Shown: positions 43,739-62,065 of the stretch, one piece after another | How positions within the stretch are numbered: the stretch's first letter is position 1 | Layout of the letters: the number at the start of each line of letters is the position of its first letter | Assembly (NCBI RefSeq): GCF_013315695.1 | Contig: NZ_CP054353.1 | DNA from: Escherichia coli | GTDB taxonomy: Bacteria > Pseudomonadota > Gammaproteobacteria > Enterobacterales > Enterobacteriaceae | Direction: 5' to 3' (one strand) | DNA: 64,000 nucleotides | Program-made: the position numbers and the translations under genes | The notes under the pieces: generated by a model | What the model was told of the DNA's origin: nothing | The model's input: only the letters and a program-made list of their open reading frames with translations | The model's database searches: none

Positions 43739-46021
43739 ATGTCCGAGCTTAATGAAAAGTTAGCCACAGCCTGGGAAGGTTTTACCAAAGGTGACTGGCA
43801 GAATGAAGTAAACGTCCGTGACTTCATTCAGAAAAACTACACTCCGTACGAGGGTGACGAGTCCTTCCTGGCTGGCGCTACTGAAGCGACCACCACCCTG
43901 TGGGACAAAGTAATGGAAGGCGTTAAACTGGAAAACCGCACTCACGCGCCAGTTGACTTTGACACCGCTGTTGCTTCCACCATCACCTCTCACGACGCTG
44001 GTTACATCAACAAGCAGCTTGAGAAAATCGTTGGTCTGCAGACTGAAGCTCCGCTGAAACGTGCTCTTATCCCGTTCGGTGGTATCAAAATGATCGAAGG
44101 TTCCTGCAAAGCGTACAACCGCGAACTGGACCCGATGATCAAAAAAATCTTCACTGAATACCGTAAAACTCACAACCAGGGCGTGTTCGACGTTTACACT
44201 CCGGACATCCTGCGTTGCCGTAAATCCGGTGTTCTGACCGGTCTGCCAGATGCTTATGGCCGTGGTCGTATCATCGGTGACTACCGTCGCGTTGCGCTGT
44301 ACGGTATCGACTACCTGATGAAAGACAAACTTGCACAGTTCACCTCTCTGCAGGCTGATCTGGAAAACGGCGTAAACCTGGAACAGACTATCCGTCTGCG
44401 CGAAGAAATCGCTGAACAGCACCGCGCTCTGGGTCAGATGAAAGAAATGGCTGCGAAATACGGCTACGACATCTCTGGTCCGGCTACCAACGCTCAGGAA
44501 GCTATCCAGTGGACTTACTTCGGCTACCTGGCTGCTGTTAAGTCTCAGAACGGTGCTGCAATGTCCTTCGGTCGTACCTCCACCTTCCTGGATGTGTACA
44601 TCGAACGTGACCTGAAAGCTGGCAAGATCACCGAACAAGAAGCGCAGGAAATGGTTGACCACCTGGTCATGAAACTGCGTATGGTTCGCTTCCTGCGTAC
44701 TCCGGAATACGATGAACTGTTCTCTGGCGACCCGATCTGGGCAACCGAATCTATCGGTGGTATGGGCCTCGACGGTCGTACCCTGGTTACCAAAAACAGC
44801 TTCCGTTTCCTGAACACCCTGTACACCATGGGTCCGTCTCCGGAACCGAACATGACCATTCTGTGGTCTGAAAAACTGCCGCTGAACTTCAAGAAATTCG
44901 CCGCTAAAGTGTCCATCGACACCTCTTCTCTGCAGTATGAGAACGATGACCTGATGCGTCCGGACTTCAACAACGATGACTACGCTATCGCTTGCTGCGT
45001 AAGCCCGATGATCGTTGGTAAACAAATGCAGTTCTTCGGTGCGCGTGCAAACCTGGCGAAAACCATGCTGTACGCAATCAACGGCGGCGTTGACGAAAAA
45101 CTGAAAATGCAGGTTGGTCCGAAGTCTGAGCCGATCAAAGGCGATCTCCTGAACTACGATGAAGTGATGGAGCGCATGGATCACTTCATGGACTGGCTGG
45201 CTAAACAGTACATCACTGCACTGAACATCATCCACTACATGCACGACAAGTACAGCTACGAAGCCTCTCTGATGGCGCTGCACGACCGTGACGTTATCCG
45301 CACCATGGCGTGTGGTATCGCTGGTCTGTCCGTTGCTGCTGACTCCCTGTCTGCAATCAAATATGCGAAAGTTAAACCGATTCGTGACGAAGACGGTCTG
45401 GCTATCGACTTCGAAATCGAAGGCGAATACCCGCAGTTTGGTAACAACGATCCGCGTGTAGATGACCTGGCTGTTGACCTGGTAGAACGTTTCATGAAGA
45501 AAATTCAGAAACTGCACACCTACCGTGACGCTATCCCGACTCAGTCTGTTCTGACCATCACTTCTAACGTTGTGTATGGTAAGAAAACTGGTAACACCCC
45601 AGACGGTCGTCGTGCTGGCGCGCCGTTCGGACCAGGTGCTAACCCGATGCACGGTCGTGACCAGAAAGGTGCAGTAGCCTCTCTGACTTCCGTTGCTAAA
45701 CTGCCGTTTGCTTACGCTAAAGATGGTATCTCCTACACCTTCTCTATCGTTCCGAACGCACTGGGTAAAGACGACGAAGTTCGTAAGACCAACCTGGCTG
45801 GTCTGATGGATGGTTACTTCCACCACGAAGCATCCATCGAAGGTGGTCAGCACCTGAACGTTAACGTGATGAACCGTGAAATGCTGCTCGACGCGATGGA
45901 AAACCCGGAAAAATATCCGCAGCTGACCATCCGTGTATCTGGCTATGCAGTACGTTTCAACTCGCTGACTAAAGAACAGCAGCAGGACGTTATTACTCGT
46001 ACCTTCACTCAATCTATGTAA
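43739..46021 (+). CDS. pflB: pyruvate formate-lyase (formate C-acetyltransferase)
   Basis: 760-aa ORF with the C-terminal glycyl-radical motif RVSGYAV and active-site cysteines (IACCVSPM). Confidence 0.98.
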
Positions 46022-46212: not shown

Positions 46213-46953
46213 ATGTCAGTTATTGGTCGCATTCACTCCTTTGAATCCTGTGGAACCGTAGACGGCCCGGGTATTCGCTTTATCACCTTTTTCCAGGGCT
46301 GCCTGATGCGCTGCCTGTATTGTCATAACCGCGACACCTGGGATACGCATGGCGGTAAAGAAGTTACCGTTGAAGATTTGATGAAGGAAGTGGTGACCTA
46401 TCGCCACTTTATGAACGCTTCCGGCGGCGGCGTTACCGCATCCGGCGGTGAGGCAATCCTACAAGCTGAGTTTGTTCGTGACTGGTTCCGCGCCTGCAAA
46501 AAAGAAGGCATTCATACCTGTCTGGACACCAACGGTTTTGTTCGTCGTTACGATCCGGTGATTGATGAACTGCTGGAAGTAACCGACCTGGTAATGCTCG
46601 ATCTCAAACAGATGAACGACGAGATCCACCAAAATCTGGTTGGAGTTTCAAACCACCGCACGCTGGAGTTCGCCAAATATCTGGCGAACAAAAATGTGAA
46701 GGTGTGGATCCGCTACGTTGTTGTGCCAGGCTGGTCTGACGATGACGATTCAGCGCATCGCCTCGGTGAATTTACCCGTGATATGGGCAACGTTGAGAAA
46801 ATCGAGCTTCTCCCCTACCACGAACTGGGCAAACACAAATGGGTGGCGATGGGCGAAGAGTACAAGCTCGACGGTGTAAAACCACCGAAAAAAGAGACGA
46901 TGGAGCGAGTAAAAGGCATTCTTGAACAATATGGTCATAAAGTGATGTTTTAG
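46213..46953 (+). CDS. pflA: pyruvate formate-lyase activating enzyme (radical SAM)
   Basis: 246-aa ORF from ATG 46213 ([23 protein letters not shown]...) with the radical-SAM cluster motif [10 protein letters not shown]. Confidence 0.96.
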
Positions 46954-47019
46954 AACATCATTGCAGGTTGAATGTCGACCTGTAATTTTGGCTCCTTCCC
47001 CCTTCTTTTAGTTAGAATA

Positions 47020-47059
47020 AATAAATCAGCGTTGAGTGTATGCTCGACGCTGATTTATT
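47020..47059. terminator. 13-bp-stem hairpin between convergent pflA and bcsC-like gene
   Basis: AATAAATCAGCGT...ACGCTGATTTATT perfect inverted repeat with a 14-nt loop; the only strong structure in the 146-bp convergent gap. Confidence 0.5.
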
Positions 47060-47099
47060 GAGCTTAATTTTCGTACTGTAACTTTCCGATGCTACGTTA

Positions 47100-50000
47100 C
47101 TACCCGTCGGCGTAAGGTATCAGCGGCTGTGGCGGTAAATCCATATCGCCCTGCCATCCGGCGGCGGAATACCGTACATAGAGCTGGAAGTGACTTGGCG
47201 CATAATCCTTCGCTTTCTGGATATCAATCGCCGTACCAACAAACCAGTTGGACGTGACGCGACGTTCAAGTAATGCCCGTGCCGTGTAACCAAAACCCTG
47301 ACTGCTGCTACCACTGTTGGATTGTTGTGCTGCTTCTTCCTGCCAGTCGCTCGGGATCAGGTTCATCAGCGGATAACGCGGCATGGTTTTGGTCCGTGAG
47401 TGCGACCATGAACCTGAAGCCCCCAGCTCCCACGACCAGTTTTCCGTCCGCTCGCGCCACATCACCGGCACCGCAAACGACAGGTATTCCTGCGGGCTGT
47501 AGTAACCGCCCTGACCCAGTGAGTACTCACTCAGGTCTTTGTCGTAATGCCAGATCATGTTGTTCAGGCCAATGGTAACGCGGCGGTTATTCTCGTTGAT
47601 AATTTTATAGTAATAGCCCGTCATCCAGCGCACGCGCCAGTTATCTTCGACATTTTTACCGGTTAACTGATCACCGCTAAGCGATGCCCAGACGCCGTTT
47701 GCTTCACCTTTATCGTAACTCAGACTTAGCCCCACGCCGTCGGCACGCACGCCGCCCCATTTTTTCCCGGTGTTGCCCGGAGAATCTTTCTGCCCGCCGA
47801 AGGCCAGCATTGAGCTGGAGACAGGCCGACGATGTGCGTCAACGGTATAGCCGAGTGGGCCGATACTGTCGCTGTAACTGACAGCGCCGACCACATCCAC
47901 CACGTTGAATCCCATCGGTGTGGTGCCAATATCCCAGCTCCAGGTGTCGTTGCGCCAGCCAACCGCCACGCTTGTGCCGGAGTCTGACTGACTGCGGTTG
48001 CCGCTACACTCCTGCAGCGTACAGGTTCCCCAGTTATCATCCCATTTGCCATCGGCATTAGTGGAGAAACTGCCGACGTTCATATTGACGAAATCACTGC
48101 GAAAGAACATCCGACCGTCAGAATACGGCGCATCCACCTGCAACATGGTGGTATGTGCTTTCAGGTCAGAATAGCCGCCAGTGCCGTTTGATCCCCAGTA
48201 GTCGTGCTCCAGGGTGACATTGAGATCCTGCTGACGATAAAGATCTGCCGCATCGCTGCGCACGCCACGTTTCAGCCAGTCATCCTGCTCATCATTACGG
48301 GTAAGGCGGGTAAAGGTGTCGTTATCCTGCGGACGTGTCGTCGTCACGCCGGAAGCGATCATCGCATCTTTGTAGGTTTCCAGCGCCTGTTGCGGTTCAC
48401 CCGCCTGCGCCTCAAATTTTGCGCCATCGCGCAGTACCATCGCGCTTTCCATCGACGGCGGCTGAGATTTTGCCTGCAGGATCAGCCTGTTAAATGTCTG
48501 CTGTGCCGCTGCGGTATCGCCAAGCTGTGCCTGCACCAACGCCACGCGCCGCTGAGTGTTCAGCGAGGCGTTATCGGTGGCGGGAAGTTTCGCCAGTTGA
48601 CTGCGCGCCGCGGCTTTGTCGCCTGCGGCAATATCCACTTCCGTCAGGCCAAGAATGGCATCGGCGTTATTCGACTCCCGCGCCAGCACATTCTGATACG
48701 CCGTGCGGGCGGCGGTGTAATCGCGTCGCTGTTGTGCCCAGTCAGCCAGCGTAAGATCAATGCGCGTGGAAGGCGGTTGCTGGCGTAGCATCGCCTCCGC
48801 ATCCTGTTCTTTGCCACTGTCACGCAGGCGATTAGCCGTTTCCAGAATCTGATCGCTTTGCAGGCGATTCACCAGTTCCTGAATGTTGCCGTTCCACCGG
48901 GCGCGCGGCAGATTGTTAATATGCGCCAGCGCCGCCCGCTCCTGATCGTGACCGGAGAGATACAGTCCGTAAGCGTAAACCTGGTCCGGGTCGTTCGGCT
49001 TCTGTTGCGCCAGGTTACGCATTAACGTATCAGCCTGGGTACGTTGTCCGGCCTGCCAGAGATCCTGCGAAAGCCGGTAAGTTACCCACACACTGCCGGG
49101 GTCCAGCGCCAGTCGTTGCCGCTGAAGTGCTGCCGCCTGCGCCCATTTACCCTGATTTTCCAGCGCCTCCGCCTGCTGCGATAAGCGATCGTTTTGCAGA
49201 CTGCGTTCGATATCATCAATACTGCGCCGCTGGCTGGCAGAAAGTGACGCAATAAACGCTTCAGCTTTTTCCGGCGATTGCTGCCGATAAATGTTCGCCA
49301 GTCCACGCACGGCGTTAGTGTTGCCGCTGTCCATACGCAGGGTCTGCTGATAATAACGTTCGGCGGCGGGGTAATCTTTTCGCGCCATTGCCACATCACC
49401 CAGCCCCAGCACCGCATAGCTGTCGGTGTTATCGACATTGCGTGCCTGCAGGAACAGGCGTTCCGCCTGATCAGGATTGTTCGCTTTCAGTGCGGCATCG
49501 CCCTGTTGGATCGCCAGCCAATAACGGTTCACTTTCAGCAAACTGTTCCATTTGTCGTTGTTGCTGCTGTGCGGGCCCAGCGCGAGGGCTTTTTCCAGAT
49601 TTGCCACCGCATTCGCGCGATCGCCTTTCTGTGAATAAGCCTGGCCCAGCGCCCCCAATATTGCACCAGAGTTTGGGTTATCAATATTAAGTTTTTTCAA
49701 CTGACTAATTGCCTCGTTGCGACGAGATGCAATTTGCGCCACTGCACTCCAGTATTCCAACGCCATGCCGACATCTGACGGTACTCCGTTAAATAGCTTG
49801 TCATAACTGACAATAGCCTCCTCGTATCGCCCGGAGATAGCTTGTAAACGCGCCATTTGCAATGCCTGGCGCCCCTCAAGCGAAGAAAGTCGCATGACCG
49901 TACGCGATGCTTTATATATTTTTGAATCTGGGGCGATCAGAGAAAGTCTGGCAAGTTGTTTGTGTGCTCCGTCAATATCCCCCTTGCGAAGCAGATAGCG

Positions 50001-50207
50001 AAACCGAGCCGCAACGACATCAGGATTATTGGGCTCCACCAATTCAAGGCGATAAAGCGACTGCTCCACCAGTTCTTCACGGTGAGAGTCTTCTCCCAAT
50101 CGAATCTGTGCCATCAGCAGTTGATAAGCAGTTGGCGTGGCTTTTGCCATCGACATTACCGCCAAACCAAGAGATATGGTGAGTAAATTTAGGGTGAATT
50201 TGTGCAT
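47100..50207 (-). CDS. BcsC-like outer-membrane exopolysaccharide export protein (N-terminal TPR region + C-terminal beta-barrel)
   Basis: About 1035-aa ORF (ATG at 50207; track start 50219 is TTG) with signal peptide MHKFTLNLLTISLGLAVMSMAKA, multiple TPR-like repeats, and a C-terminal region rich in alternating aromatic/Gly beta-strands typical of BcsC barrels. Last gene of the co-oriented cluster. Confidence 0.8.
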   Translation of the reverse strand: MHKFTLNLLTISLGLAVMSMAKATPTAYQLLMAQIRLGEDSHREELVEQSLYRLELVEPNNPDVVAARFRYLLRKGDIDGAHKQLARLSLIAPDSKIYKASRTVMRLSSLEGRQALQMARLQAISGRYEEAIVSYDKLFNGVPSDVGMALEYWSAVAQIASRRNEAISQLKKLNIDNPNSGAILGALGQAYSQKGDRANAVANLEKALALGPHSSNNDKWNSLLKVNRYWLAIQQGDAALKANNPDQAERLFLQARNVDNTDSYAVLGLGDVAMARKDYPAAERYYQQTLRMDSGNTNAVRGLANIYRQQSPEKAEAFIASLSASQRRSIDDIERSLQNDRLSQQAEALENQGKWAQAAALQRQRLALDPGSVWVTYRLSQDLWQAGQRTQADTLMRNLAQQKPNDPDQVYAYGLYLSGHDQERAALAHINNLPRARWNGNIQELVNRLQSDQILETANRLRDSGKEQDAEAMLRQQPPSTRIDLTLADWAQQRRDYTAARTAYQNVLARESNNADAILGLTEVDIAAGDKAAARSQLAKLPATDNASLNTQRRVALVQAQLGDTAAAQQTFNRLILQAKSQPPSMESAMVLRDGAKFEAQAGEPQQALETYKDAMIASGVTTTRPQDNDTFTRLTRNDEQDDWLKRGVRSDAADLYRQQDLNVTLEHDYWGSNGTGGYSDLKAHTTMLQVDAPYSDGRMFFRSDFVNMNVGSFSTNADGKWDDNWGTCTLQECSGNRSQSDSGTSVAVGWRNDTWSWDIGTTPMGFNVVDVVGAVSYSDSIGPLGYTVDAHRRPVSSSMLAFGGQKDSPGNTGKKWGGVRADGVGLSLSYDKGEANGVWASLSGDQLTGKNVEDNWRVRWMTGYYYKIINENNRRVTIGLNNMIWHYDKDLSEYSLGQGGYYSPQEYLSFAVPVMWRERTENWSWELGASGSWSHSRTKTMPRYPLMNLIPSDWQEEAAQQSNSGSSSQGFGYTARALLERRVTSNWFVGTAIDIQKAKDYAPSHFQLYVRYSAAGWQGDMDLPPQPLIPYADG

Positions 50208-51968
50208 ACCTGGACTCAATCAGGTGTTAACTCACTTTTTATTAAAAAATGAATAAGCGCAGTTCCCTGCCCTGCCTGTTTAAGGCCAGAGCAGAGAGCT
50301 ACAAAGATGAATTACTGTTGATGAGGATTCAGACGACGATGGCTAATGATGCGTAGCAGACGCCAGACGACCCACGCCAGAAGCACCACACTCAGCATTG
50401 CCATTCCTGCCAGCAAAACAGGATGTTTCGCTAACATATATTGCGCGCGCTCAATCCAGGGAAGATGCCCCACATAATAGGTATCTCCAACCCGTAAACT
50501 ATCGACACCTGATTCACGAATAACCGCAACTGAGCCAAATATATTGCCACGTTTTGCACTATTAATTAGCGCATTATTAAGTAACTCGTCACCACGTGCC
50601 CCCTCGGTCATTAATGCAATTACGCTACGTTGGGGATGATATGGAGACTGGAAACCAACCACCGCGGCCATTGGCGATGGAGAGATCATGCTTGTTTGTG
50701 TTTCAGTTTTTTGGTTGTTTTCATCTGTCATAATTTGTGCGTTATCAGAGTGCCGCATTGGCGTTTTTACCCAACTAGCGGTTGCATCAATGAGCAGATT
50801 AATTTGCTGCTGACCTGCAAATTCTTGCGGAATTGCCCCTATCAGCAGGATGTCTGCATCCTTATTCTGGATGGAGCTTATATCATCAGTAACTGTCAGA
50901 TTAATTGCCGGAAATCCGGTTTGAGCACCAATCAATCCAAGGGTATTTAGCAATATTTCAACCTGCGTTGTACCAGGATGTTCAGGCATAACGATGACTG
51001 TTTCAGATAAATCGGCCATACGGCTAAAAGGAAAGCCTGAACTAGCAAAGGCGCGTAAATCTGGCATGGCGATAAAGTGATGATACTTTGAAAAATCGAT
51101 AGTAGAATCATCAGCAATAACTGCATGGTTATTCAGAGGCCGGGAAATAATACAACTCCCGTCATCAGTACTCGGTATCGTATTAACGTACTCAAAATTG
51201 AATCGTAATTGATTAAGTGCCCCCAATGTCAGCGCCGGAATGGTAATTTTATTATTGCTATCTGACAATTCTTGCAATAACGGTAAATGTAATAGCAGTC
51301 GATCAGTAGTCGAGCGCGGGCTTGGGCGAAAAGATTCAATGTACTGATTATTAAGATTAACATCAATACGAGAACCGCCTACCATTGGCGTGGTATAGCG
51401 ATAGTTAATCTTCATATCAACCCCACTATTACGTAACAGAAAGAGATCAGGCGGCAAATTGAATGAAACATTAATTGCTGCGATCTGCAGGGCACTTGCC
51501 TGTAACTGTCCTTCATAGTTTTTAAGCTCTGCGAAAGTTACAGGACGATCAGTGCGAACCCAGTTTGGCGCATCATAAGGTTTGCGTGGCAGCAGTGGTT
51601 TCACGTCATTTACAACCACACTATCGCCGCGAAACAGTATATTTCCCTGAGCGAGACCTTTTGCTGCCTGTAATAAATCTTTGTCATCGCGGCCCCAAAT
51701 TACCAACAATTTGACGAAAGGATTTTGTGGATGGTTAATCATCTTAATAACAGGTGCATTCACCAACGGATGATCACGCAAAAAGTCTGGCCGTCTATTG
51801 TTAGTGGCAAAGACTATAGCATTGCTTTCCGGTAACTGATTATAAAAAACTGGAAATTGATGACCACGCCACCCCGATTGCGAACCAAACCACGAAGCGA
51901 CAATTGCAGATGCTTGCTGCAAACCAGCCTCCGGTGGGCCAGCAAAAACCATCGGCAATGTATTAGTA

Positions 51969-51977
51969 CGGTTATCT
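51969..51977. repeat. 9-bp IS1 target-site duplication, left copy (CGGTTATCT)
   Basis: Identical 9-mer at 52746-52754 flanks the other end of IS1. Confidence 0.9.
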
Positions 51978-52032
51978 GGTGATGCTGCCAACTTACTGAT
52001 TTAGTGTATGATGGTGTTTTTGAGGTGCTCCA

Positions 52033-52308
52033 GTGGCTTCTGTTTCTATCAGCTGTCCCTCCTGTTCAGCTACTGACGGGGTGGTGCGTAACGGCAAAAG
52101 CACCGCCGGACATCAGCGCTATCTCTGCTCTCACTGCCGTAAAACATGGCAACTGCAGTTCACTTACACCGCTTCTCAACCCGGTACGCACCAGAAAATC
52201 ATTGATATGGCCATGAATGGCGTTGGATGCCGGGCAACAGCCCGCATTATGGGCGTTGGCCTCAACACGATTTTACGTCACTTAAAAAACTCAGGCCGCA
52301 GTCGGTAA
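52033..52308 (+). CDS. insA: IS1 InsA (transposition inhibitor / N-terminal part of InsAB' transposase)
   Basis: 91-aa [45 protein letters not shown]... matching IS1 InsA. Confidence 0.95.
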
Positions 52309-52730
52309 CCTCGCGCATACAGCCGGGCAGTGACGTCATCGTCTGCGCGGAAATGGACGAACAGTGGGGCTATGTCGGGGCTAAATCGCGCCAGCGCTGG
52401 CTGTTTTACGCGTATGACAGGCTCCGGAAGACGGTTGTTGCGCACGTATTCGGTGAACGCACTATGGCGACGCTGGGGCGTCTTATGAGCCTGCTGTCAC
52501 CCTTTGACGTGGTGATATGGATGACGGATGGCTGGCCGCTGTATGAATCCCGCCTGAAGGGAAAGCTGCACGTAATCAGCAAGCGATATACGCAGCGAAT
52601 TGAGCGGCATAACCTGAATCTGAGGCAGCACCTGGCACGGCTGGGACGGAAGTCGCTGTCGTTCTCAAAATCGGTGGAGCTGCATGACAAAGTCATCGGG
52701 CATTATCTGAACATAAAACACTATCAATAA
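52227..52730 (+). CDS. insB: IS1 InsB frame (expressed as InsAB' via -1 frameshift)
   Basis: 167-aa ORF in the -1 frame relative to insA, matching IS1 InsB. Confidence 0.9.
52282..52290 (+). promoter_or_regulatory. IS1 programmed -1 ribosomal frameshift site (TTAAAAAAC)
   Basis: The A6C slippery motif lies in the insA/insB overlap, where the IS1 frameshift site is known to be. Confidence 0.7.
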
Positions 52731-52745
52731 GTTGGAGTCATTACC

Positions 52746-52754
52746 CGGTTATCT
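52746..52754. repeat. 9-bp IS1 target-site duplication, right copy (CGGTTATCT)
   Basis: Exact repeat of 51969-51977. Confidence 0.9.
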
Positions 52755-53455
52755 CGCGGATCAAAGAATGGCACAGGAAAATATGAAAGATCATTTTGCA
52801 GATTGAGTTTCTGGACGACCAGACCAAGTTCACTGTTACGTCCAATATCAAGCCACAAGTTATTGCTGGTTGAGATTTCACAGCTATTCTGATAATGGCC
52901 AATTAATTCAAAACGCAAACGATTAAAATCCGAGAAATACAATGGGTTAAGCGTTATTTCCGCCAACGTTTTTTTTCCCAGTTGTTCTTTGGTAATCGGT
53001 AATACTCCCATCAACTCATCATTAAGATAAACTTTAAGCTGCGACTGAACGGGGATCAATGACGGTGACGGAGTATATTCAAGCTTTAGTTTTGCATCTG
53101 AAACTATCTCATCACTGCGCATACCAAATTCAATATACCCCAGTGGGTTGACACCATTCAAAACGATGTTACCAGGCGCTGGTGATATTTGTGTAAATGG
53201 AAGTTTAAAATGATAAGAGGAATCTTTCGCATAAACAGAGACGTTAGACTTCTCTATAGCGGGTAATACTATCCCGGAGGGAGACTTATGGATTATGGTA
53301 TCTAAAGCTGATGCAGCATTTGCCTGGTATAACCATAAAAACCCTAAGCAAATTATTGCAGTAATAAATTTTAAATATTTTCTTTCCATTTTAAAAATTT
53401 CAAGAGACATAATCAACACAAATAATATATTTAGTTGGTTAAATATAATCTAAAA

Positions 53456-55570
53456 CTAATTCTCACGACTATTTTTTAGTGTCCGCAGAATATAAAAAAT
53501 CATATTGTAATACCCTTTAAGAGAGATGATACATACGTCAAAAAAGCTCTTTAGTATATTATCTTGCTTAATTTTATCATTCCACTCTTGCCATAATGAA
53601 TCACGTGAAAATGTTACTCTGACATAATTAATATTCTGTTCATAAGTCATTGGCAAAATCTTCAGACCAATTTTATTTTTGTAAGCATGAACAACTTTTA
53701 CAGGAATATCACATTCCCCTTTATTATCACTCAGATAAAGAGACAAATGCTGAGTTTTTTCGATTTCTTTTACATCGGAGATGTGATCAACAATAACCCC
53801 CAGGCCACCTTCGGAGAAATCAATAACAGAACAGGGATAGCACCGTCCATCTGCTAGTTTTATCACACCTTTAAAAGAAACATCTATCCGAGGAGAAAAG
53901 CGGACCTGCTTTTGTTCAATAGAGACTGCCAGGGTTGCGCCAATAATAATTGTATTATAAATCAACCAAATCAAACAAAATAAATTTAATATAACAAGAT
54001 GACCTTGCAATCTATAAATATTAATAACACCTATTATTAGTCCAATTAAATTTAAAATAGCAAAAATAAGATAAGGATATGAGATTCGCCAGTCAACAAA
54101 TTTATTTTTTATTAACCCGCCCTTGGCAGTAACGTTAAATCGCCCTTTAGCTGGCGCAAGTAAGGCAACAAGCGTTGGTAGTGTAATATACCAGGCCAGA
54201 ACCATTTCATAAATTTCATTCCAAAATGAATGTCTGTATTCACCCTGAACTCTTGAGTTAGTAAAAATAATCACAAATAGATAAGGTAGAACATAAGACA
54301 TAATATCTGCAACCGACGCATCTATCAAATTAACTGAAAAGAAAATAGGACATAGTGGCGCGAATAAAAAAATCAGCCGTGGAACCCCTGATAAAAAATG
54401 CATCATGCTACTGAGATAGCAAAGACGCTGTGATAACGTCAGCCCTTTGCCCAATAATGGATTATCAATACGTAAGATTTGGATCATGCCCCTGGCCCAC
54501 CGTATTCGTTGTCCGATATGAGCAGACAATGTTTCGGTAGCAAGTCCAGCGGCCAGAGGATAGCGAAGATATGCGGAGCTGTACCCTGCACGATGCAAGC
54601 GTAGCGATGTATGCGCATCTTCCGTTACCGTTTCAACTGCAATGCCTCCAACCTCATCTAATGCAGACCTACGGATAACCGCGCATGAACCACAAAAAAA
54701 TGAAGCATTCCATGTATCGGTGCCATTCTGGATTAAACCATAAAAAAGATGTCCTTCATTTGGTTTCTGCCGAAATTGCCCCAAGTTTCGCTCAAAAGGA
54801 TCGGGAGAGAAAAAATGATGTGGTGTTTGCAGCATCGATAGTTTTTTATCGGCAATAAACCAGCCCATCGTTTTTTTTAAAAAAGAAACGGAAGGAATAT
54901 GATCACAATCGAAAATAGCAACAAATTCGCCGTTAGCTATTTTAAGCGCATTGTTTATATTTCCAGCTTTCGCATGTTCATGCGTTTCTCTTGCAACATA
55001 GCAAATACCTGACTCATCAGCAAATTTCCTGAATTCGTCTCTGGCACCATCATCAAGAAGCCAGACATGTAATTTATCTTTTGGCCAGTCTAAAGCCAGC
55101 GCTCCATAAACTGTATTCTTCACGACAGTAAAGGGTTCATTATATGTAGGTATGAATATATCGACATCAGGCCATTCTTCTTTATTATCTGGTAAAGGTA
55201 TGCTTTCCCTGTTCAATGGGAAACAGACCTGAAAATAACCAAGTAATAAAACAAACCATGCATACGTTTCAGCAGCTAACAGCGTCAATGAAAAGAAGCT
55301 GTCAGGAAACTCATCAAGAATAACTGAAGAAGAGTAACGCCACCATAGATACCTTGTGGATATAAGTATACCAATACCCATTAAGATCAGGGTAATCATC
55401 CTTCCCCTGAGCAAATTGAGGAGAAAAACAGAGATACAAATGATAATCGAGAATAGTGTTTGTTGATAAAAACCGAGCGGCTGTTCAACAATTGACAAAA
55501 AAACAAAACATAGCAATATAGCAACAAAAAGAAAAATTTTGTTGTATATTTCTTTATTTTTTAAATTCAT
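53456..55570 (-). CDS. BcsA-like processive family-2 glycosyltransferase with C-terminal PilZ (c-di-GMP-binding) domain
   Basis: 704-aa ORF with eight or more predicted TM helices, GT2 motifs (LLDDGARDEF, FDCDH, TVTEDAHT, QRIRWARG, FFCGSCAV) and PilZ motifs (RFSPR = RxxxR; DFSEGG = DxSxxG). About 35% GC. Confidence 0.88.
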   Translation of the reverse strand: MNLKNKEIYNKIFLFVAILLCFVFLSIVEQPLGFYQQTLFSIIICISVFLLNLLRGRMITLILMGIGILISTRYLWWRYSSSVILDEFPDSFFSLTLLAAETYAWFVLLLGYFQVCFPLNRESIPLPDNKEEWPDVDIFIPTYNEPFTVVKNTVYGALALDWPKDKLHVWLLDDGARDEFRKFADESGICYVARETHEHAKAGNINNALKIANGEFVAIFDCDHIPSVSFLKKTMGWFIADKKLSMLQTPHHFFSPDPFERNLGQFRQKPNEGHLFYGLIQNGTDTWNASFFCGSCAVIRRSALDEVGGIAVETVTEDAHTSLRLHRAGYSSAYLRYPLAAGLATETLSAHIGQRIRWARGMIQILRIDNPLLGKGLTLSQRLCYLSSMMHFLSGVPRLIFLFAPLCPIFFSVNLIDASVADIMSYVLPYLFVIIFTNSRVQGEYRHSFWNEIYEMVLAWYITLPTLVALLAPAKGRFNVTAKGGLIKNKFVDWRISYPYLIFAILNLIGLIIGVINIYRLQGHLVILNLFCLIWLIYNTIIIGATLAVSIEQKQVRFSPRIDVSFKGVIKLADGRCYPCSVIDFSEGGLGVIVDHISDVKEIEKTQHLSLYLSDNKGECDIPVKVVHAYKNKIGLKILPMTYEQNINYVRVTFSRDSLWQEWNDKIKQDNILKSFFDVCIISLKGYYNMIFYILRTLKNSREN

Positions 55571-55643
55571 GGTACGTAACTATTCATTAATACTATGATT
55601 TGACTTTAAAAAAACGAATGAATGATGTCATAAAAATAAAATT

Positions 55644-56984
55644 TTAACACCAGGTTACCTGTGCTCTTCCATTTTGCTTACTTTTGTATAATCGTTCATC
55701 TGCCAGTAATTTCAACCGTTCAATGTTATTCATGCACTCGTCAGTATTGGCAACACCAATACTGCAACTACAATTCAATCCACCTATTGAGAAATGGACT
55801 ATTCTGTGCAAAATTCTTGATAATTGATTTATATCTTTATCATGATAAATAATAGCGAACTCATCGCCACCAAATCGATAAACTTCACCTTTGCTGAGGG
55901 GTAATTCATCCTTAATAAGATTAACAAGTCTTATTAGTACTTCATCACCAAATAAATGACCAAACTTGTCATTAATGGTTTTAAACTTATCTACATCAAA
56001 CAGGCATAAATATCCAAAATCCTTACTCAGCATCCTGATATTTTTATCAAAAACACGACACCCAGAAGCTCGCGTCAATGCATCGTAAGTCCCGGAATCA
56101 TATATTTCTCTAATTGCATCAATCTCTTCAACGTTAAAGAATAGATTTTTTCCATGCAAATTATAATGATTATTCGATAATATAGATTCTTTTTCTGACT
56201 TACCCTTATTTATGATTTTTTGCATTAATTTAATGTAATGAAAATATATTAACCCCGCAGAAATCGCCGATGTGAAAACAAAAAACAAGCACATATAAAT
56301 ATACTTATCTTTTTTATAGGCAACAATAAACATTACTTCCGGGATATAAGAATAAGCAAGAGTGATCGCTGATTTCTCAAATACAGCATCATTAATCAAA
56401 AAATCATCACCCGCGATTTTCTTTTCATTATCATTGATATCATAAAATGAGACATATATATTTTCCCGTTCACCTGACTGATTTCTTATCAAAGCCAAAT
56501 AACGTTCAGGATCTACCACTGATATCAAACTTGTTCGTTTCGAAATAGGATGAGCATAATAAATATAATATTTATTATTTAAACTAATAATCCCTCTTTC
56601 AAAGATGTTACTTATACGGATAGAAGAAACTATGCCGTCACAAAAGTTATCCCCTTCCGTTGTAACTTTGGCGCATTTACCATCGCTAATGATATAGGGA
56701 CCTAGATCATAAATATATTCTGGTTTTTGAAAGTCAGCAAAACTATTGCGTATCCTTTTTAACAACTCTTCCGGAGAAATATCTAACCCATAAAATACAT
56801 TATTAAATACTAAGCGCCGATACTCAGACACATTAGCTATAGCAAGCCCACTATCTATGATCGATACCTTTACCGAATTGACTCGATCTTTAACGTAAAT
56901 AGTATACAGATAACATGTCATTACAGAGACACATAAAAAATACAAAAAACAGATCCCTGCTGCCTTTTTTTTATACTTAAACAT
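55644..56984 (-). CDS. membrane-anchored diguanylate cyclase (two TM helices flanking a periplasmic domain + GGDEF domain); DgcI/YliF-like by architecture
   Basis: 446-aa ORF with GGDEF-domain motifs DALT, FDVDKFKTINDKFGH, RFGGDEFAII and ADERLYKSKQNGR; no RxxD I-site five residues upstream of GGDEF. About 30% GC. Confidence 0.85.
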   Translation of the reverse strand: MFKYKKKAAGICFLYFLCVSVMTCYLYTIYVKDRVNSVKVSIIDSGLAIANVSEYRRLVFNNVFYGLDISPEELLKRIRNSFADFQKPEYIYDLGPYIISDGKCAKVTTEGDNFCDGIVSSIRISNIFERGIISLNNKYYIYYAHPISKRTSLISVVDPERYLALIRNQSGERENIYVSFYDINDNEKKIAGDDFLINDAVFEKSAITLAYSYIPEVMFIVAYKKDKYIYMCLFFVFTSAISAGLIYFHYIKLMQKIINKGKSEKESILSNNHYNLHGKNLFFNVEEIDAIREIYDSGTYDALTRASGCRVFDKNIRMLSKDFGYLCLFDVDKFKTINDKFGHLFGDEVLIRLVNLIKDELPLSKGEVYRFGGDEFAIIYHDKDINQLSRILHRIVHFSIGGLNCSCSIGVANTDECMNNIERLKLLADERLYKSKQNGRAQVTWC

Positions 56985-56988
56985 TGTG

Positions 56989-59337
56989 TTATTTTCTTTT
57001 TTTCGGTTTACTGTCTATATGCCACTCTGAAAACGGTAATGGTTTCTGGTATAAATATCCCTGAACATGGGAGAAGCCTAATTTTTGTAATTCTCTGGCC
57101 TGTCTTTCTGTTTCAACACCTTCAGCGATCACTGGCATATTTTCTTCTCGTGCAAGACTAGATATAAAACACACAACCCTGTTAGTTTCATCGAAAATAC
57201 CAGAAGTAAATTCTGAATCAATTTTGATGCTATCAGGTCTAACTTTGTATAATTTTTTCAAGTCAGCTAACCCACTGCCAAAATCATCAAGGGAAATTTT
57301 AATGCCATTTCTTCTTAAAAATTTTATATTATTATAAAAACTATCATTTATATCTTTCATTGCTGACTCGGTGATCTCCAGACAGATTTGTTCCGTATTT
57401 ACGCCAAATTTATTAATTAAATTCAAAACGCGGGTATGGAAATCAAATTCATTTAACTGCCAAGGTGAAACATTGATATGCAGAAGAAATTCTTTCGTAA
57501 TTTCATACTCACGACTAAATGAACCAAATTCACCAATAGCCGTTTCAAGAACAAAATCACCCAGTTCTTTAATTAAGCCAATTTCTTCAGCAACAGGCAC
57601 GAAAACTGATGGTGGTATTGCACCATTTTCAACGGACAACCAGCGGCATAACGCTTCGGCGCCAACAACATTATTACTATCCATATCAACAATCGGTTGA
57701 TATACTAAATAAAACTCACTACTCACAATTGCTTTTTTTATATTTCCAGCAACCCAAACCTTTTGATCAAGTTCATGAGCCTTAATATCATCATAAAATA
57801 TAAATTCAGATTCTTTATTTTCTCGCATAGCTGTTAATGCCAGTTTCAGTTTACCTTCATAAATCGACAAACTTTCCCCTGAAAAAGTTTCACAAATAGC
57901 AACCTTATGAACATAAATATTTCTTATGCAAAAAATATGCTCAGGAAAGTTTAAAACAGATAATCGTTCTATGAACTCTTCACAATGAGTGTGACACAGC
58001 AACAAATATGTTTCAGTAGAAATTTTTATAATATCACAATATTTAGAATACTTTGCTGATATCTTTGATTTTATATCATTAATGATCTCATAAAATTTCT
58101 GACTGCCATGTATAGCCTCTACAAACTCTAATCCATAGATACAAAGCATACCAACTGCTGAATAGGTTTTATTATTAGTTTCAATGACAGATTTGTTGAT
58201 ATAGAAACAACTTCCTTGTTCATAGGAAACAAGATTAAGTAACCGTTCCATCCGCTCTTTGTATTTGTCACTAATGTTATTAATGATTTTTTTGAGCTCA
58301 ATAATCTCACTACTGTCATTTTGCACGATTTCGATTTTATCATTTCGGTATACTGAGCTCGCTAATTTTTTCAGATGCTCAATTAGTTTACCAGAGTCGT
58401 TTCTAACCTTTTTTGTTATCTTTTCAAAAAGGTACCATAATAAACAGAAACAAACCAAACCACATACAAACATCAGTGTAAAATATTTATTTATGTTTGT
58501 GTCTTCTGCTTTTTGATAATGAAAATAATGAAATTTGACATCAGGAAGCCTGGGGAGTGAAATAATATCGTCCGTATAATTACCGTTATTATTACTTATG
58601 TTATAACGTCCAGATGCATCTCTAACAATAAGATGTAACATTGATTGTTCATTACCTACCATAATCCTTTTATTCTGTTCCATAAATAAAATATCTGCAT
58701 TTCCTCCTAATTTGTCCAGGAAATTGCTAAAATATCTTTCATCAAGATCTAAATGAATTAACTTCAGAGCAAATGAATCTTTTTCTGCTTCGGCTGGTCG
58801 TAATGAAAACGAAAAACATTTTTTCCCGGCAATGCCATAGCAGTTATACCATGGTGACCATTTTGAATAAGTCCCTGTTGGTAATTTATTCCAGGGACGG
58901 GATTCAGGATCAAAGTAGTTATCGTTAATTTCACCATCAGGGCTAGTAAAAGCATGACCTGGCTCTGATTGCCCCAAAAATTTAACATCACCATTATCAG
59001 TTCGAATAAAGCTAAGATACTTTCCATTATTTAGCATTATTCCGACTAAATTAACAGAATCTATCTTTTTCATCCGATGAAGAACTGCGCGTTTTATTTC
59101 ATTTTCATCGTGTAACAGATAAATGGCATCTTTTAAAGCATCCGCCTCTTTTTCAACTTTAGAAAAAAAGTTATTCAAATTATTATTGATAAGTATAAGA
59201 TTAATGCGTGAAGAGTTTTCTGCTATTTTTTTATAAAAATCAATGGCTGTAATAAATGATAAAATAATATAGACAGTGACAGCGAATATAAGCGCAGTGT
59301 TAAATCTTGAGTTTAATTTTTCTGTGATGCTATACAT
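56989..59337 (-). CDS. membrane-anchored c-di-GMP phosphodiesterase (periplasmic sensor domain + cytoplasmic linker + EAL domain); PdeI/YliE-like by architecture
   Basis: 782-aa ORF; EAL-domain catalytic motifs are intact (EALCRW, NVSPWQ, EITES, DDFGSGL, KIDSEF, EGVETE, GYLYQKP). Its stop is 4 bp from the dgc start. Confidence 0.85.
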   Translation of the reverse strand: MYSITEKLNSRFNTALIFAVTVYIILSFITAIDFYKKIAENSSRINLILINNNLNNFFSKVEKEADALKDAIYLLHDENEIKRAVLHRMKKIDSVNLVGIMLNNGKYLSFIRTDNGDVKFLGQSEPGHAFTSPDGEINDNYFDPESRPWNKLPTGTYSKWSPWYNCYGIAGKKCFSFSLRPAEAEKDSFALKLIHLDLDERYFSNFLDKLGGNADILFMEQNKRIMVGNEQSMLHLIVRDASGRYNISNNNGNYTDDIISLPRLPDVKFHYFHYQKAEDTNINKYFTLMFVCGLVCFCLLWYLFEKITKKVRNDSGKLIEHLKKLASSVYRNDKIEIVQNDSSEIIELKKIINNISDKYKERMERLLNLVSYEQGSCFYINKSVIETNNKTYSAVGMLCIYGLEFVEAIHGSQKFYEIINDIKSKISAKYSKYCDIIKISTETYLLLCHTHCEEFIERLSVLNFPEHIFCIRNIYVHKVAICETFSGESLSIYEGKLKLALTAMRENKESEFIFYDDIKAHELDQKVWVAGNIKKAIVSSEFYLVYQPIVDMDSNNVVGAEALCRWLSVENGAIPPSVFVPVAEEIGLIKELGDFVLETAIGEFGSFSREYEITKEFLLHINVSPWQLNEFDFHTRVLNLINKFGVNTEQICLEITESAMKDINDSFYNNIKFLRRNGIKISLDDFGSGLADLKKLYKVRPDSIKIDSEFTSGIFDETNRVVCFISSLAREENMPVIAEGVETERQARELQKLGFSHVQGYLYQKPLPFSEWHIDSKPKKRK

Positions 59338-60436
59338 ACTGGTGTTCTGACTAAAATGTTATCAATAATTTCGATATTACATTATATAAAGTTCGGTATA
59401 TGAAATGGTATTAATACTCCTCTTTATGATTTTCTGAATTAAATGATCTCCATTCTGTAAATATATCATAATGAGAAGATTGATTTTCTCTTAATTTACC
59501 AAAGTTATTATCATGCTTATTACTTTAACCAGAATGACATTATCATATATAGCGTTTATACTTTTGCATCTTCCACCCACGCTACCGCCTTTCGTTAATT
59601 TATCAACGAAATAATTTAGATATGAAAAAATCAATATATGACGCCTAAGCTATCACATTATGCATAGTTGCGACATTCACCTCTTTAATTATCCCAAAGA
59701 GGTATTAATGTGAATTCTCTATCATCCATTTTGCTGATTTATCTTTTTTCAGTCATGAGCAATCCGACTCTCTTAGCCAAAATAAATTAATAACCTTAAA
59801 ATGAGGTTTAATCAGAAAGTAGTAGCCACAGCTTGACTATTAAGACTATAAATTAGCCATAACGATGGACAGATAAATATGTTAATGAATACATGTTCAA
59901 TAAAACAATAAGGCACAACGCCAGGCCACCATTTTATTTTAAAAATAAAAGGCTGTGAACTATGCCAGGTATAATCTGATTCTATCGAGAGAGAATTTTT
60001 GTAAGTTACAAATACTGCAAAAGACACATTACACAAAATTTTTAACCACACAAACACCTTGTGTTCTGTATAACAGAACAATAGCTGTGGTCATTTTCAG
60101 CAAGTTTAACTAAAATTATCAAGAATTTTTTTTGATGTATATCAAAAACAATAGTCTTCGCGCATCCGTTACTGCTTAACATTTACCCACAAAGTTCATA
60201 TTTTCACCACACATAATCGTTCACTTCAGAACTTAAAATAATAACTTGCAAAATAACCAATAATTAAAACTATCACTGCATCTAAAAATAAAGATTAAGA
60301 TAACTAAAATTCGTATTATCACGGCATCGTTTATCGCCACCCGTCTCTTAAGAAAAATTTAACTTTGCTATTATCAGTCCTCTCCGAATTTCTCTTCTAT
60401 TTACTGCGATAACCCCGGCGAACCGGGGCATGATGA

Positions 60437-61856
60437 CTATTTCTTATTCGCTTTACGCGCAAGTAACGGGAATATCAGCCCCAGTCCAACCAGGACAAAT
60501 GGCGTCGCAATATTCAGCGCCAACTGAAAAGTCCACTCTGCGGTGAAGGCTTCCATTTTCGGGAAAATCCCTGTCAGGCAGGCAAAAGCGGTAAAGGTAA
60601 AACACCAGATCCCGACAGTCATCGCCAGCGGCCTGTTACGAATAAAGACATACTCTGGTTTATATTTCTGCGCCAGGCGAACGACTGCAATAAATGCAAC
60701 AAATACCCATAAATAACGCAGCGGCATCACTACCGAATTAAGGTTCAACAGCCATTTATAGAGATTGTTCATATCACCAATGCCGAGAGTCGGCAGCATA
60801 ATCAGAATCGCCACCAGTACCAGGGTCAGAAAATAGCCATTAACGGGCGTACCAGAAGCGTTGGTACGACATAAACTGGCTGGAATATATTTGCTATCAG
60901 CATCGCCTAATAGTACTTTAAGCGGCGCATCAATCGAGAATACCAGCGCAGCTACTTGTCCCAGGGTATTCGCAATGGCGTAAATCACCATTAAAGTATT
61001 ACCCATGTTGTAATACTCGCCCAGCTTCTGAAAGGCGTAATACTGACCGTTGGTCATTAAGTCATCCGGGATATTACGCGAATCAAACATCATCCCCATC
61101 GCCAGCGAGCCCAGAATGGCACAAACCGCAACCATCACCGCCAGGCATAACATCCCTTTTGGAAATTCTTTTCCTGGGTTGCGCGTTTGATTAACGTAAG
61201 GAGAAATCTTCTCTGCTCCGCCAACCGCGAAAACCAGCATTGAAATAGTGGTAATGTAGGTAAAGTCGATATGAGGAATGAACGTTTCCCAGGTAATGTT
61301 TGTGGTCGCAATATGCACTTCAGTAATTGCAGGCGCGGTTACCGCCATCGCCACATACAGGAGCGACATAACAAACATCGCAATCCCTGCCACAGAACCG
61401 ACGATTTTCAGCGATTTCATACCGCGTGAAGCAACCCACATAAAGAAGATAAACAGCACCAGCGTTAACCCCTGTAACGCTACGACTGAATATTCTTTGA
61501 TTAACGAACCGTCGCCTTTCATCGCCCAACCGAGCGCAATCAGTATTGCCTGGGGTTTTTGTGCCAGATAGGGAATATGCACTACCCAGTAGGTCCACGC
61601 GGCGAGGTAAGCCAGTCCGGGTCCCATCGTGTGTTTAATCCAGGTACTGACCCCGCCCTTCCCATCTTTGAAGGTCGAGCCTAACTGACCAACAATTAGC
61701 GCATAAGGTGTGAAATAGAGCGCAAAGATAAACACCCATGAAAAACCCCTGGTTGGCGTAGTTATTAACAACGTTGCCAAAACCCCAGACAGTGATAAAA
61801 GACATCAGCGCAATGTTGTACCATCGCAGCTGTTTTTCCTGAACATTCCCAGCCAT
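60437..61856 (-). pseudogene. ycaM: APC-family amino acid/polyamine transporter gene with a frameshift near the 5' end
   Basis: The N-terminal 37 codons (MAGNVQEKQLRWYNIALMSFITVWGFGNVVNNYANQG, from ATG 61856) are in one frame and the remaining 447-codon ORF (from 61780) in another; the frames switch at an A5/T5 homopolymer at 61741-61745. Confidence 0.7.
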
Positions 61857-62065
61857 AGACAAATCCTTCGCCAAAATTAAAGGGGCATCTGTAAAACGAG
61901 GGATTATGCGCGGCAAATAAGAAGTGCGGAAATAGCGAAATGCAAAATTATAACCTGCTGCACATTTTATTTTGAAACGAATAAAATTTGGAATAAAGCA
62001 AGTCAGATAGAAGAAACAAAAAAGCAGAGTGTGAAACAGTAAGTTCACACTCTGCGTTAATTCAT

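Follow-up and report, generated by a model that had tools for sequence, protein, structure and literature searches.

Organization of the accessory bcs island

The window analyzed in this study is a 64-kb stretch of the Escherichia coli contig NZ_CP054353.1. Homology to the typical E. coli chromosome ends at position 46949 and restarts at 60438. The low-GC segment of 13.5 kb between these points (46950-60437, no strand assigned), referred to here as the accessory bcs island, lies between pflA and ycaM and replaces ycaK-ycaN of typical E. coli, in which the empty site has the gene order pflA-ycaK-ycaN(LysR)-ycaM. The genes of the island were found in the order CHASE9-EAL, GAPES2-GGDEF, bcsA′, bcsB′, and bcsC′, all on the minus strand; RefSeq already names the cluster genes bcsA, bcsB, and bcsC.

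The first gene of the cluster (56989-59337) encodes a CHASE9 sensor and EAL phosphodiesterase of 782 aa with a YliE/PdeI-like architecture. Pfam placed CHASE9 at residues 36-150 (E = 8e-38) and EAL at residues 533-766 (E = 2e-64), and the EAL motif was present. The second gene (55644-56984) encodes a GAPES2 sensor and GGDEF diguanylate cyclase of 446 aa with a YliF/DgcI-like architecture (GAPES2, residues 26-232, E = 1e-39; GGDEF, residues 300-441, E = 2e-21), in which the GGDEF motif is intact and the TIGR00254 score was 82.8 against a cut-off of 37.4. The likeness of the two enzymes to YliE and YliF is based on the Pfam architecture and on the figures of the preprint discussed below. A literature search for earlier names of the pair (dgcY/pdeX) gave nothing relevant. 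The chromosome of the strain is rearranged at an IS110.

Upstream of the first gene, a non-coding AT-rich region of 1.1 kb (59338-60436, minus strand, 31% GC) was observed, which is presumed to be the promoter/regulatory region. It carries no annotated feature and was present only in the nine island-bearing genomes. No match was obtained when the island was scanned with Rfam. A search for promoters and terminators was uninformative in such AT-rich DNA, yielding 55 sites where 38.7 would be expected and terminators at chance level.

An IS1 of 768 bp (51978-52745, plus strand), flanked by a 9-bp target duplication, CGGTTATCT, at 51969-51977 and 52746-52754, interrupts bcsB′ in the window. The 5′ fragment (52746-53410, minus strand) comprises the N-terminal ~222 codons and is annotated by RefSeq as a partial BcsB, and the 3′ fragment (50312-51977, minus strand) includes the C-terminal membrane anchor. 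When IS1 and one copy of the target site were removed, the fragments joined in frame and the ORF was restored. The partner is intact in the strains MS 21-1 and N3; the uninterrupted protein of MS 21-1 has 766 aa, and intact BcsB′ scored 1159.8 with NCBIfam NF008325 (a 766-position model; cut-off, 922). Because a simple IS1 insertion splits bcsB′, the accessory module is predicted to be inactive in this strain.

The last gene, bcsC′ (47100-50207, minus strand, 1035 aa), is a mosaic with canonical bcsC. Its first ~176 codons (49680-50207) are of the island type, with a GC3 of 0.48, and the remainder (47100-49679), with a GC3 of 0.63, is near canonical Escherichia bcsC. The sliding nucleotide identity was 60-74% and then 79-96%. 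At the protein level, identity to canonical BcsC is 60% for residues 1-206 of both proteins and 92.9% between residues 165-1034 of BcsC′ and canonical residues 287-1156; ~122 canonical residues (roughly three TPRs) are missing at the joint. The NF008520 score of BcsC′ was 1859.9 against a cut-off of 858.

BcsA′ lacks the BcsG-docking termini

The bcsA′ gene (53456-55570, minus strand) starts with ATG and encodes a putative c-di-GMP-dependent GT2 cellulose synthase of 704 aa. The product aligned with residues 158-836 of the canonical BcsA of a near-identical genome at 52.8% identity, and with the solved E. coli BcsA chains over residues ~160-829 only (E = 7e-259). Residues 1-157 of canonical BcsA, the N-terminal domain of ~150 aa, and residues 837-872, a tail of ~36 aa, have no counterpart in BcsA′. 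This agrees with the original prediction that the synthase has 704 aa and lacks the N-terminal extension.

The N-terminal domain of BcsA (~140-150 aa), to which the BcsG trimer is recruited, and a C-terminal SxxPRxP helix are the BcsG-docking elements. The N-terminal domain alone suffices to recruit BcsG, BcsA without it gives only trace pEtN, and no BcsG co-purifies with the wild-type BcsAB of R. sphaeroides, an enzyme devoid of this domain (Verma et al. 2024, PMC11379886). The SxxPRxP motif, located at residue 850 in canonical BcsA (BcsA1), was absent from BcsA′.

Using the strain's own proteins as tblastn queries, we detected no homologues of BcsZ, BcsQ, BcsE, BcsF, or BcsG across the 64 kb of the window, in which the lowest E value was 0.44. 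As for bcsR, the RefSeq annotation shows no small ORF at the accessory bcs operon, and no modifying enzyme (acetyltransferase or pEtN transferase) is encoded in the island according to its ORFs and annotation. The gap between bcsB′ and bcsC′ contains no endoglucanase; its length is 92 bp if bcsC′ starts at the TTG at 50219 and 104 bp if the RefSeq start at 50207 is taken. The original prediction that a bcsZ is lacking at this place, and bcsQ and bcsEFG-like genes in the window, was thus borne out. Accessory genes directly outside the window had been considered as an objection; beyond its right end we found ycaC and dmsCBA and no bcs genes. With both BcsG-docking termini missing from BcsA′, and bcsG, bcsE, and bcsF absent from the island, the best prediction is that the product of the accessory module would be unmodified rather than pEtN-cellulose.

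The original prediction had proposed looking for a canonical bcs locus in the source strain. Such a locus, which includes bcsZ, bcsQ, bcsG, and bcsF, was located elsewhere in the near-identical genome (216-231 kb of NZ_LR898874.1). With these core genes in the same genome, the module might make pEtN-cellulose by borrowing BcsG, BcsF, and BcsE (and BcsZ, BcsR, and BcsQ) in trans, and the trace modification of BcsA without the N-terminal domain was indeed obtained with over-expressed BcsG (Verma 2024, PMC11379886). We regard this as improbable, since BcsA′ has neither the N-terminal domain nor the SxxPRxP docking helix.

The type II Bcs system of E. coli and Salmonella (bcsRQABZC-bcsEFG), which produces pEtN-cellulose, shares with the accessory module the BcsA GT core and PilZ domain, a BcsB with 64% identity to BcsB′, and a BcsC whose C-terminal three quarters are 93% identical to the bcsC′ product. 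In contrast, BcsA′ is without the N-terminal domain and the C-terminal helix, and BcsG, BcsF, BcsE, BcsQ, and BcsZ are missing from the module, which has its own cyclase/phosphodiesterase pair, a low GC content, and a shorter BcsC TPR region. The arrangement is not that of type II, and together with the absent docking termini it favors the first part of the original proposal on the product, namely that it may not be canonical pEtN-cellulose.

Motifs, family, and fold of BcsA′

The catalytic motifs of BcsA′ are all intact (DDG173, DCD221, FFCGS291, TED316, and QRIRW354), the gating loop FxVTxK is kept as FNVTAK478, and the PilZ motifs RxxxR and DxSxxG are kept as RFSPR557 and DFSEGG584. Pfam assigned GT2 families and a PilZ domain (residues 555-651, E = 1.8e-11). 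Furthermore, BcsA′ scored above the cut-offs of the NCBIfam UDP-forming cellulose synthase equivalogs NF008558 (1012.8 vs 992) and TIGR03030 (845.7 vs 699.1). With all of the above motifs preserved and both cut-offs passed, the product is most likely β-1,4-glucan and not another glucan. Compared with BcsA1, the GT core showed 64-82% identity. The TM and PilZ regions showed only 26-44%, and for this reason the regulation of BcsA′ could differ from that of BcsA1.

BcsA′ matched the solved structures 7LBY, 9FMV, and 4HG6 in sequence; the match to R. sphaeroides BcsA (E = 5e-108) aligned query residues 13-594 with chain residues 20-619. The AF2 model of BcsA′ was of moderate confidence (pLDDT 74), and its best Foldseek matches were E. 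coli BcsA (9b8v_E, TMq 0.82) and R. sphaeroides BcsA (4p00_A, TMq 0.77, TMt 0.75), the latter at 27-28% identity. Rhodobacter (Cereibacter) sphaeroides BcsA-BcsB makes unmodified cellulose under the control of c-di-GMP. Like BcsA′, this enzyme (PDB 4HG6, 4P00) has the minimal architecture, and the colinearity of the two begins at the first TM helix and takes in the PilZ domain as well as the C-terminal helix. Because BcsA′ matches it end to end, the short form is regarded as normal outside pEtN producers. The Escherichia module differs in having a BcsC porin, and BcsA′ is phylogenetically closest to enterobacterial BcsA.

The second part of the original proposal was that the synthase makes another β-glucan or related polymer. 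A mixed-linkage, curdlan-like, or decorated glucan instead of cellulose would be compatible with the atypical accessory set, in which no bcsZ, bcsQ, bcsE, bcsF, or bcsG was found, and with an overall identity to BcsA1 of only 53% with diverged TM and PilZ parts. However, two curated cellulose-synthase cut-offs are passed, the GT core is that of BcsA1 at the identity given above, and the far more distant R. sphaeroides BcsA makes cellulose. The module also has dedicated BcsB and BcsC partners, and the island lacks an acetyltransferase or pEtN transferase. We therefore consider such a product decidedly unlikely, and this part of the proposal was not upheld.

Distribution and relation to BcsA3

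The island was found in 9 of the 5426 complete E. coli genomes, and its site between pflA and ycaM was the same in all three carrier loci inspected (MSB1_4I, MS 21-1, and N3). Its organization is repeated in MS 21-1 and N3 as well as in contigs of E. marmotae; in the case of the BcsA2 type, it is found on plasmids. An E. marmotae relative is 88% identical, and the plasmid BcsA2 type 72.6%. Among the best 120 matches from 5.8e9 proteins, the short BcsA type formed three clusters at 90% identity, and the source-named members of these clusters were all E. coli, E. marmotae, E. ruysiae, or Escherichia sp. The island is a second E. coli cellulose cluster, rare and horizontally acquired, and the module is an import from cryptic Escherichia clades.

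The rarity of the island (9/5426 genomes) and the IS1 disruption in this strain would fit a decaying relic that is functionless in every E. coli carrier and is kept only by linkage and by recombination from the cryptic Escherichia clades. Plasmid copies have a frameshifted bcsC and IS debris, and AT-rich DNA of this kind would typically be silenced by H-NS. Against this, neither MS 21-1 nor N3 has a broken ORF among the five of the island despite a nucleotide divergence of ~15% between the alleles, which implies purifying selection, and E. marmotae records frequently contain the cluster; the chance that the island is such a relic appears very small. The remaining alternative, raised in the original prediction and suggested by a length ~170 aa below that of enterobacterial BcsA, is that the ORF of 704 aa represents an artefact, being a 5′-misannotated or truncated remnant of a full-length BcsA. 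This is almost certainly wrong: a 5′ extension is impossible because only 73 bp separate the ORF from the upstream GGDEF gene, which ends at 55644, and because tblastn with the first 157 aa of canonical BcsA detected no remnant in the window of 64 kb (lowest E, 1.2), the three clusters of relatives (704, 704, and 701 aa; 414, 106, and 1041 member sequences) share the start residue and have identical N- and C-termini, and BcsA′ is colinear end to end with R. sphaeroides BcsA. Both a truncated pseudogene and 5′ misannotation were rejected on these grounds.

The cluster type is already known from a 2025 preprint (Hosseinpourlamardi et al., bioRxiv 10.1101/2025.05.09.653004). In its accessible text, BcsA3 denotes a chromosomal, bcsABC-only cluster type that is restricted to Escherichia, with a synthase of ~41% identity to BcsA1 lacking ~150 N-terminal and ~30 C-terminal residues, and YliE-like proteins adjoin the bcs2/bcs3 clusters. 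The full-length identity of BcsA′ to BcsA1 was likewise ~41% (52.8% over 688 aligned residues, equal to 41.6% of 872). On the basis of the chromosomal location, these identity figures, and the E. marmotae relative, BcsA′ is assigned to BcsA3 rather than BcsA2. As far as the BcsA3/BcsA2-type clusters are described in that text, nothing essential differs from the island: a short BcsA, bcsABC only, and adjacent YliE-like (CHASE9-EAL) and YliF-like (GAPES2-GGDEF) proteins. The same prediction is made there for the product, and the experiments in the accessible text concern a BcsA4 plasmid only (10.1101/2025.05.09.653004). That text mentions neither a location between pflA and ycaM nor a mosaic structure of bcsC′, nor that IS1 has disrupted both bcs loci in this lineage. 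The reference accessions of the preprint are WP_309491259.1 and WP_000576412.1 (10.1101/2025.05.09.653004); searches of its supplements and of the cluster members gave no match to the accession or strain names used here or to the accessions of the preprint.

Proposed mechanism and implications

Taken together, these findings make it probable that bcsA′ encodes the catalytic subunit of a BcsA3-type accessory cellulose module, which is self-contained, was acquired horizontally, would produce unmodified cellulose, and is inactive in this strain. In carriers of an intact copy, local c-di-GMP would be under the control of the cyclase and phosphodiesterase of the cluster. Binding of c-di-GMP to the PilZ domain of BcsA′ would release the gating loop, and BcsA′ together with membrane-anchored BcsB′ would polymerize UDP-glucose to β-1,4-glucan and push the chain through the channel of BcsA′ itself. 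BcsC′ would then take the chain out across the outer membrane. In a reconstituted E. coli system, secretion required cellulase activity, and the absence of a cellulase from the island counts against this explanation; should cellulase be needed, the core bcsZ would have to supply it in trans.

Canonical E. coli BcsA requires BcsR and BcsQ in vivo, which also counts against the explanation. The N-terminal TPRs of BcsC are the BcsB-contacting part in the canonical system. We tentatively propose, as an idea somewhat more likely to be wrong than right, that the module is an autonomous plug-in cellulose machine that operates without BcsG, BcsR, BcsQ, or BcsZ, and that BcsC′ is a functional chimera, in which the N-terminal TPRs are island-specific and the barrel and remaining TPR solenoid have been overwritten repeatedly by gene conversion from the resident bcsC. 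If true, chimeric BcsC′ would expose a natural module boundary of BcsC and would represent a route for two cellulose systems in one cell to share an export conduit.

The value of the present finding is mainly in cataloguing, namely that some E. coli hold a second cellulose module, which is minimal and brings c-di-GMP enzymes of its own. If an intact allele is expressed, unmodified cellulose could be formed beside or instead of pEtN-cellulose, and the properties of the biofilm matrix could change. In addition, the structural model of pEtN modification can usefully be compared with an enzyme that naturally lacks the BcsG-docking termini.

Neither the IS1 interruption of bcsB′ (51978-52745) nor the canonical bcs locus elsewhere was included in the original prediction. 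In the near-identical genome, IS1 has struck the canonical locus as well. Because both cellulose loci carry IS1, a cellulose-negative phenotype is predicted for this strain.

Domain structure and fold of BcsA'

The synthase gene of the accessory island, bcsA' (53456-55570, minus strand), is an ORF of 704 aa. In a search of solved structures, E. coli BcsA matched BcsA' with an E value of 7e-259, restricted to chain residues ~160-829, and R. sphaeroides BcsA was matched from its first transmembrane helix on (query 13-594 to chain 20-619). When BcsA' was aligned with the canonical BcsA (872 aa) of the near-identical genome MSB1_4I (NZ_LR898874.1), residues 13-700 showed 52.8% identity to residues 158-836. 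BcsA' therefore lacks ~150 N-terminal and ~36 C-terminal residues of canonical BcsA, and the missing C-terminal part contains the SxxPRxP motif, located at residue 850 in BcsA1 (canonical E. coli BcsA). A short synthase without the N-terminal extension, as originally noted, was thus confirmed. A start-codon artefact, i.e. a 5'-misannotated full-length BcsA, was ruled out: the upstream gene ends 73 bp away, a tblastn search of the whole window for the N-terminal domain of canonical BcsA gave no match, and sequence comparison showed that the ends of BcsA' are common to every relative.

The GT2 and PilZ domains are present in BcsA', with the motifs DDG173, DCD221, FFCGS291, TED316, QRIRW354, FNVTAK478, RFSPR557, and DFSEGG584, which is every motif that a processive cellulose synthase gated by c-di-GMP should have. 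The structures closest to the AlphaFold2 model of BcsA' (pLDDT 74, pTM 0.72) were E. coli BcsA (TMq 0.80-0.82) and R. sphaeroides BcsA (TMq 0.77, TMt 0.75). The NCBIfam equivalog cut-offs were exceeded by BcsA', by BcsC', and by the intact BcsB' of strain MS 21-1, which matched a 766-position NCBIfam sub-model, exactly its own length. The island genes already carry the RefSeq names bcsA, bcsB, and bcsC.

Layout of the island

The island (46950-60437) is a 13.5-kb, low-GC segment found in place of ycaK-ycaN of ordinary E. coli. The gene order in the window is focA-pflB-pflA, the island, and then ycaM-ycaD; on the minus strand, the island encodes a CHASE9-EAL protein (782 aa), a GAPES2-GGDEF protein (446 aa), BcsA', BcsB', and BcsC', in this order. 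The spacer between bcsB' and bcsC' is 92 bp (104 bp with the RefSeq start) and, as had been noted, holds no bcsZ-like gene. The reported absence of bcsQ- and bcsEFG-like genes was also borne out, as searching the 64-kb window by tblastn for homologues of BcsZ, BcsQ, BcsE, BcsF, and BcsG of the strain itself gave no match (best E value, 0.44).

Upstream of the EAL gene lies a 1.1-kb non-coding stretch (59338-60436, 31% GC) present in island-bearing genomes only. Its identity between alleles is 73-74%, below that of the coding parts, and no Rfam match was obtained in it. This stretch is probably the promoter region of the island, and we infer that it is likely to be an H-NS target. Along 47100-60436, GC3 rises monotonically from the EAL gene (0.25) through the GGDEF gene (0.28), bcsA' (0.31), bcsB' (0.34-0.37), and the 5' part of bcsC' (0.48) to its 3' part (0.63); that of the flanking core genes is 0.53-0.61. 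A 750-aa ORF antisense to pflB (43760-46012, minus strand) was rejected as a gene; it is an artefact in the mirror frame of pflB, which is highly expressed.

Predicted product of BcsA'

In enterobacterial BcsA, recruitment of a BcsG trimer depends on the N-terminal domain, which the C-terminal SxxPRxP helix stabilises and which is sufficient for this recruitment. Wild-type R. sphaeroides BcsAB, without the domain, does not co-purify BcsG, and such an enzyme lacking it yields only trace pEtN even when BcsG is over-expressed (Verma et al. 2024, PMC11379886; Anso et al. 2024). Since both docking elements are missing in BcsA', the best prediction from its sequence is that it would produce unmodified cellulose, even alongside core bcsG. 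It had originally been proposed that the product may not be pEtN-cellulose but another polymer. The former part is supported, whereas synthesis of another β-glucan is unlikely in view of the equivalog scores, the 64-82% identity to BcsA1 across the GT core, and the presence of BcsB and BcsC partners dedicated to the synthase. The observation was correct and the feature is real, and the interpretation was half right: the product is predicted not to be pEtN-cellulose, yet still to be cellulose. In a reconstituted system, cellulase activity is necessary for secretion, and unrelated cellulases can substitute (Verma et al. 2024, PMC11379886); accordingly, an island without bcsZ could rely in trans on the bcsZ of the core locus, or function without it.

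Correspondence to known accessory synthases

In a 2025 preprint, the Römling laboratory described the accessory synthases BcsA2, BcsA3, and BcsA4 in E. coli (10.1101/2025.05.09.653004). BcsA2 and BcsA3 lack ~150 N-terminal and ~30 C-terminal residues, keep all catalytic and PilZ motifs, are confined to Escherichia, and show about 41-43% identity to BcsA1. Their clusters consist of bcsABC only, with adjoining YliE-like and YliF-like c-di-GMP genes; BcsA3 is chromosomal. Unmodified, BcsG-independent cellulose was explicitly suggested as the product (10.1101/2025.05.09.653004). BcsA' fits BcsA3 (52.8% over 688 residues, equal to 41.6% of 872), and the synthase of plasmid pFLI21_1 fits BcsA2 (55.3% over 691 residues, equal to 43.8%). 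The finding is thus already known, and the cluster type is published and routinely annotated.

Mosaic structure of bcsC'

The bcsC' gene (47100-50207, minus strand) is a mosaic with a joint near 49680. The island-type part covers the first ~528 nt and shows 60-74% identity to canonical bcsC, of which the following 366 nt (~3 TPRs) are absent. Over the remainder, identity to the strain's canonical bcsC is 88% for the allele in the window and about 96% for that of E. coli N3, and the joint is at the same position in both. These features suggest that bcsC' originated long ago as a chimera and later underwent gene conversion, with the resident bcsC as donor. BcsC binds the terminal BcsB through its N-terminal TPRs, as studied with constructs of TPR#1-4 (Verma et al. 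2024, PMC11379886); judging from lengths, the island-specific part of BcsC' would roughly correspond to this BcsB-binding region. The four E. marmotae-type contigs that were examined come from draft and metagenome assemblies, and each of them stops 580-772 nt into bcsC', as expected from a near-repeat of the resident bcsC and consistent with assembly collapse against it. In pFLI21_1, bcsB is followed on its 3' side by an IS3 fragment, a 126-bp bcsZ 3' remnant, and a bcsC of canonical type that is full-length but frameshifted; the source of this bcsC was evidently a canonical bcsZ-bcsC unit.

Distribution and origin

The island was found in 9 of 5426 complete E. coli genomes, and in all three carriers inspected (MSB1_4I, MS 21-1, and N3) it lies at pflA-ycaM. 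The window is part of an E. coli chromosome, and its positions 41000-64000 differ from MSB1_4I at only two bases, 53658 and 59235. The N3-type allele shows 84.6% nucleotide identity to that of the window (BcsA, 90%; BcsB, 84%; GGDEF protein, 80%; EAL protein, 88% at the protein level), and an E. ruysiae protein is 97.7% identical to the N3-type BcsA. The E. marmotae-type island (82-85% nucleotide identity) occupies an equivalent dmsABC-ycaC-ycaD neighbourhood, with no ycaM called between ycaD and the EAL gene in the four contigs examined.

Among the best 120 matches from 5.8 billion protein clusters, short-type BcsA formed only three clusters: the window's own, one of E. marmotae (88% identity), and one of the plasmid type (73%). 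Their named members are all Escherichia, and no relative outside this genus above 56% identity was found among these matches. Next in similarity come BcsAs of enterobacteria that are full-length (865-874 aa), 51-56% identical to BcsA', and 63-99% identical among themselves.

Close to the island, the flanking DNA departs further from typical E. coli than it does at a greater distance. The ycaM 3' end (60437-60936) is 93% identical, followed by 99.6% farther out, and pflA (46213-46953) shows only ~97% identity to that of most genomes, reaching at least 99% in only 5 of 5425. These diverged flanks suggest that homologous recombination brought in the island together with flanking DNA of another Escherichia lineage, by inference the cryptic clades.

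IS1 insertions in the cellulose loci

The module had been treated as intact; however, a 768-bp IS1 (51978-52745) splits bcsB'. It is flanked by a 9-bp target duplication, CGGTTATCT, at 51969-51977 and 52746-52754, and removal of IS1 and one duplicate restored a 766-aa bcsB' frame, as intact in MS 21-1. Because BcsA activity needs BcsB, the module should be inactive in this strain, where the cluster is a pseudo-operon. The search for a canonical bcs locus was successful: bcsG, bcsF, bcsQ, bcsA, bcsB, bcsZ, and bcsC are present at 216-231 kb of NZ_LR898874.1. At 218162-220324 of this genome, IS1 lies between bcsE and bcsR, both genes are truncated, and the divergent promoter region is gone. With IS1 in both cellulose loci of the lineage, the strain is predicted to be cellulose-negative. 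Separately, ycaM (60437-62048) is frameshifted in the window into ORFs of 447 and 137 aa; it is intact in MS 21-1 and annotated as a pseudogene by RefSeq in MSB1_4I.
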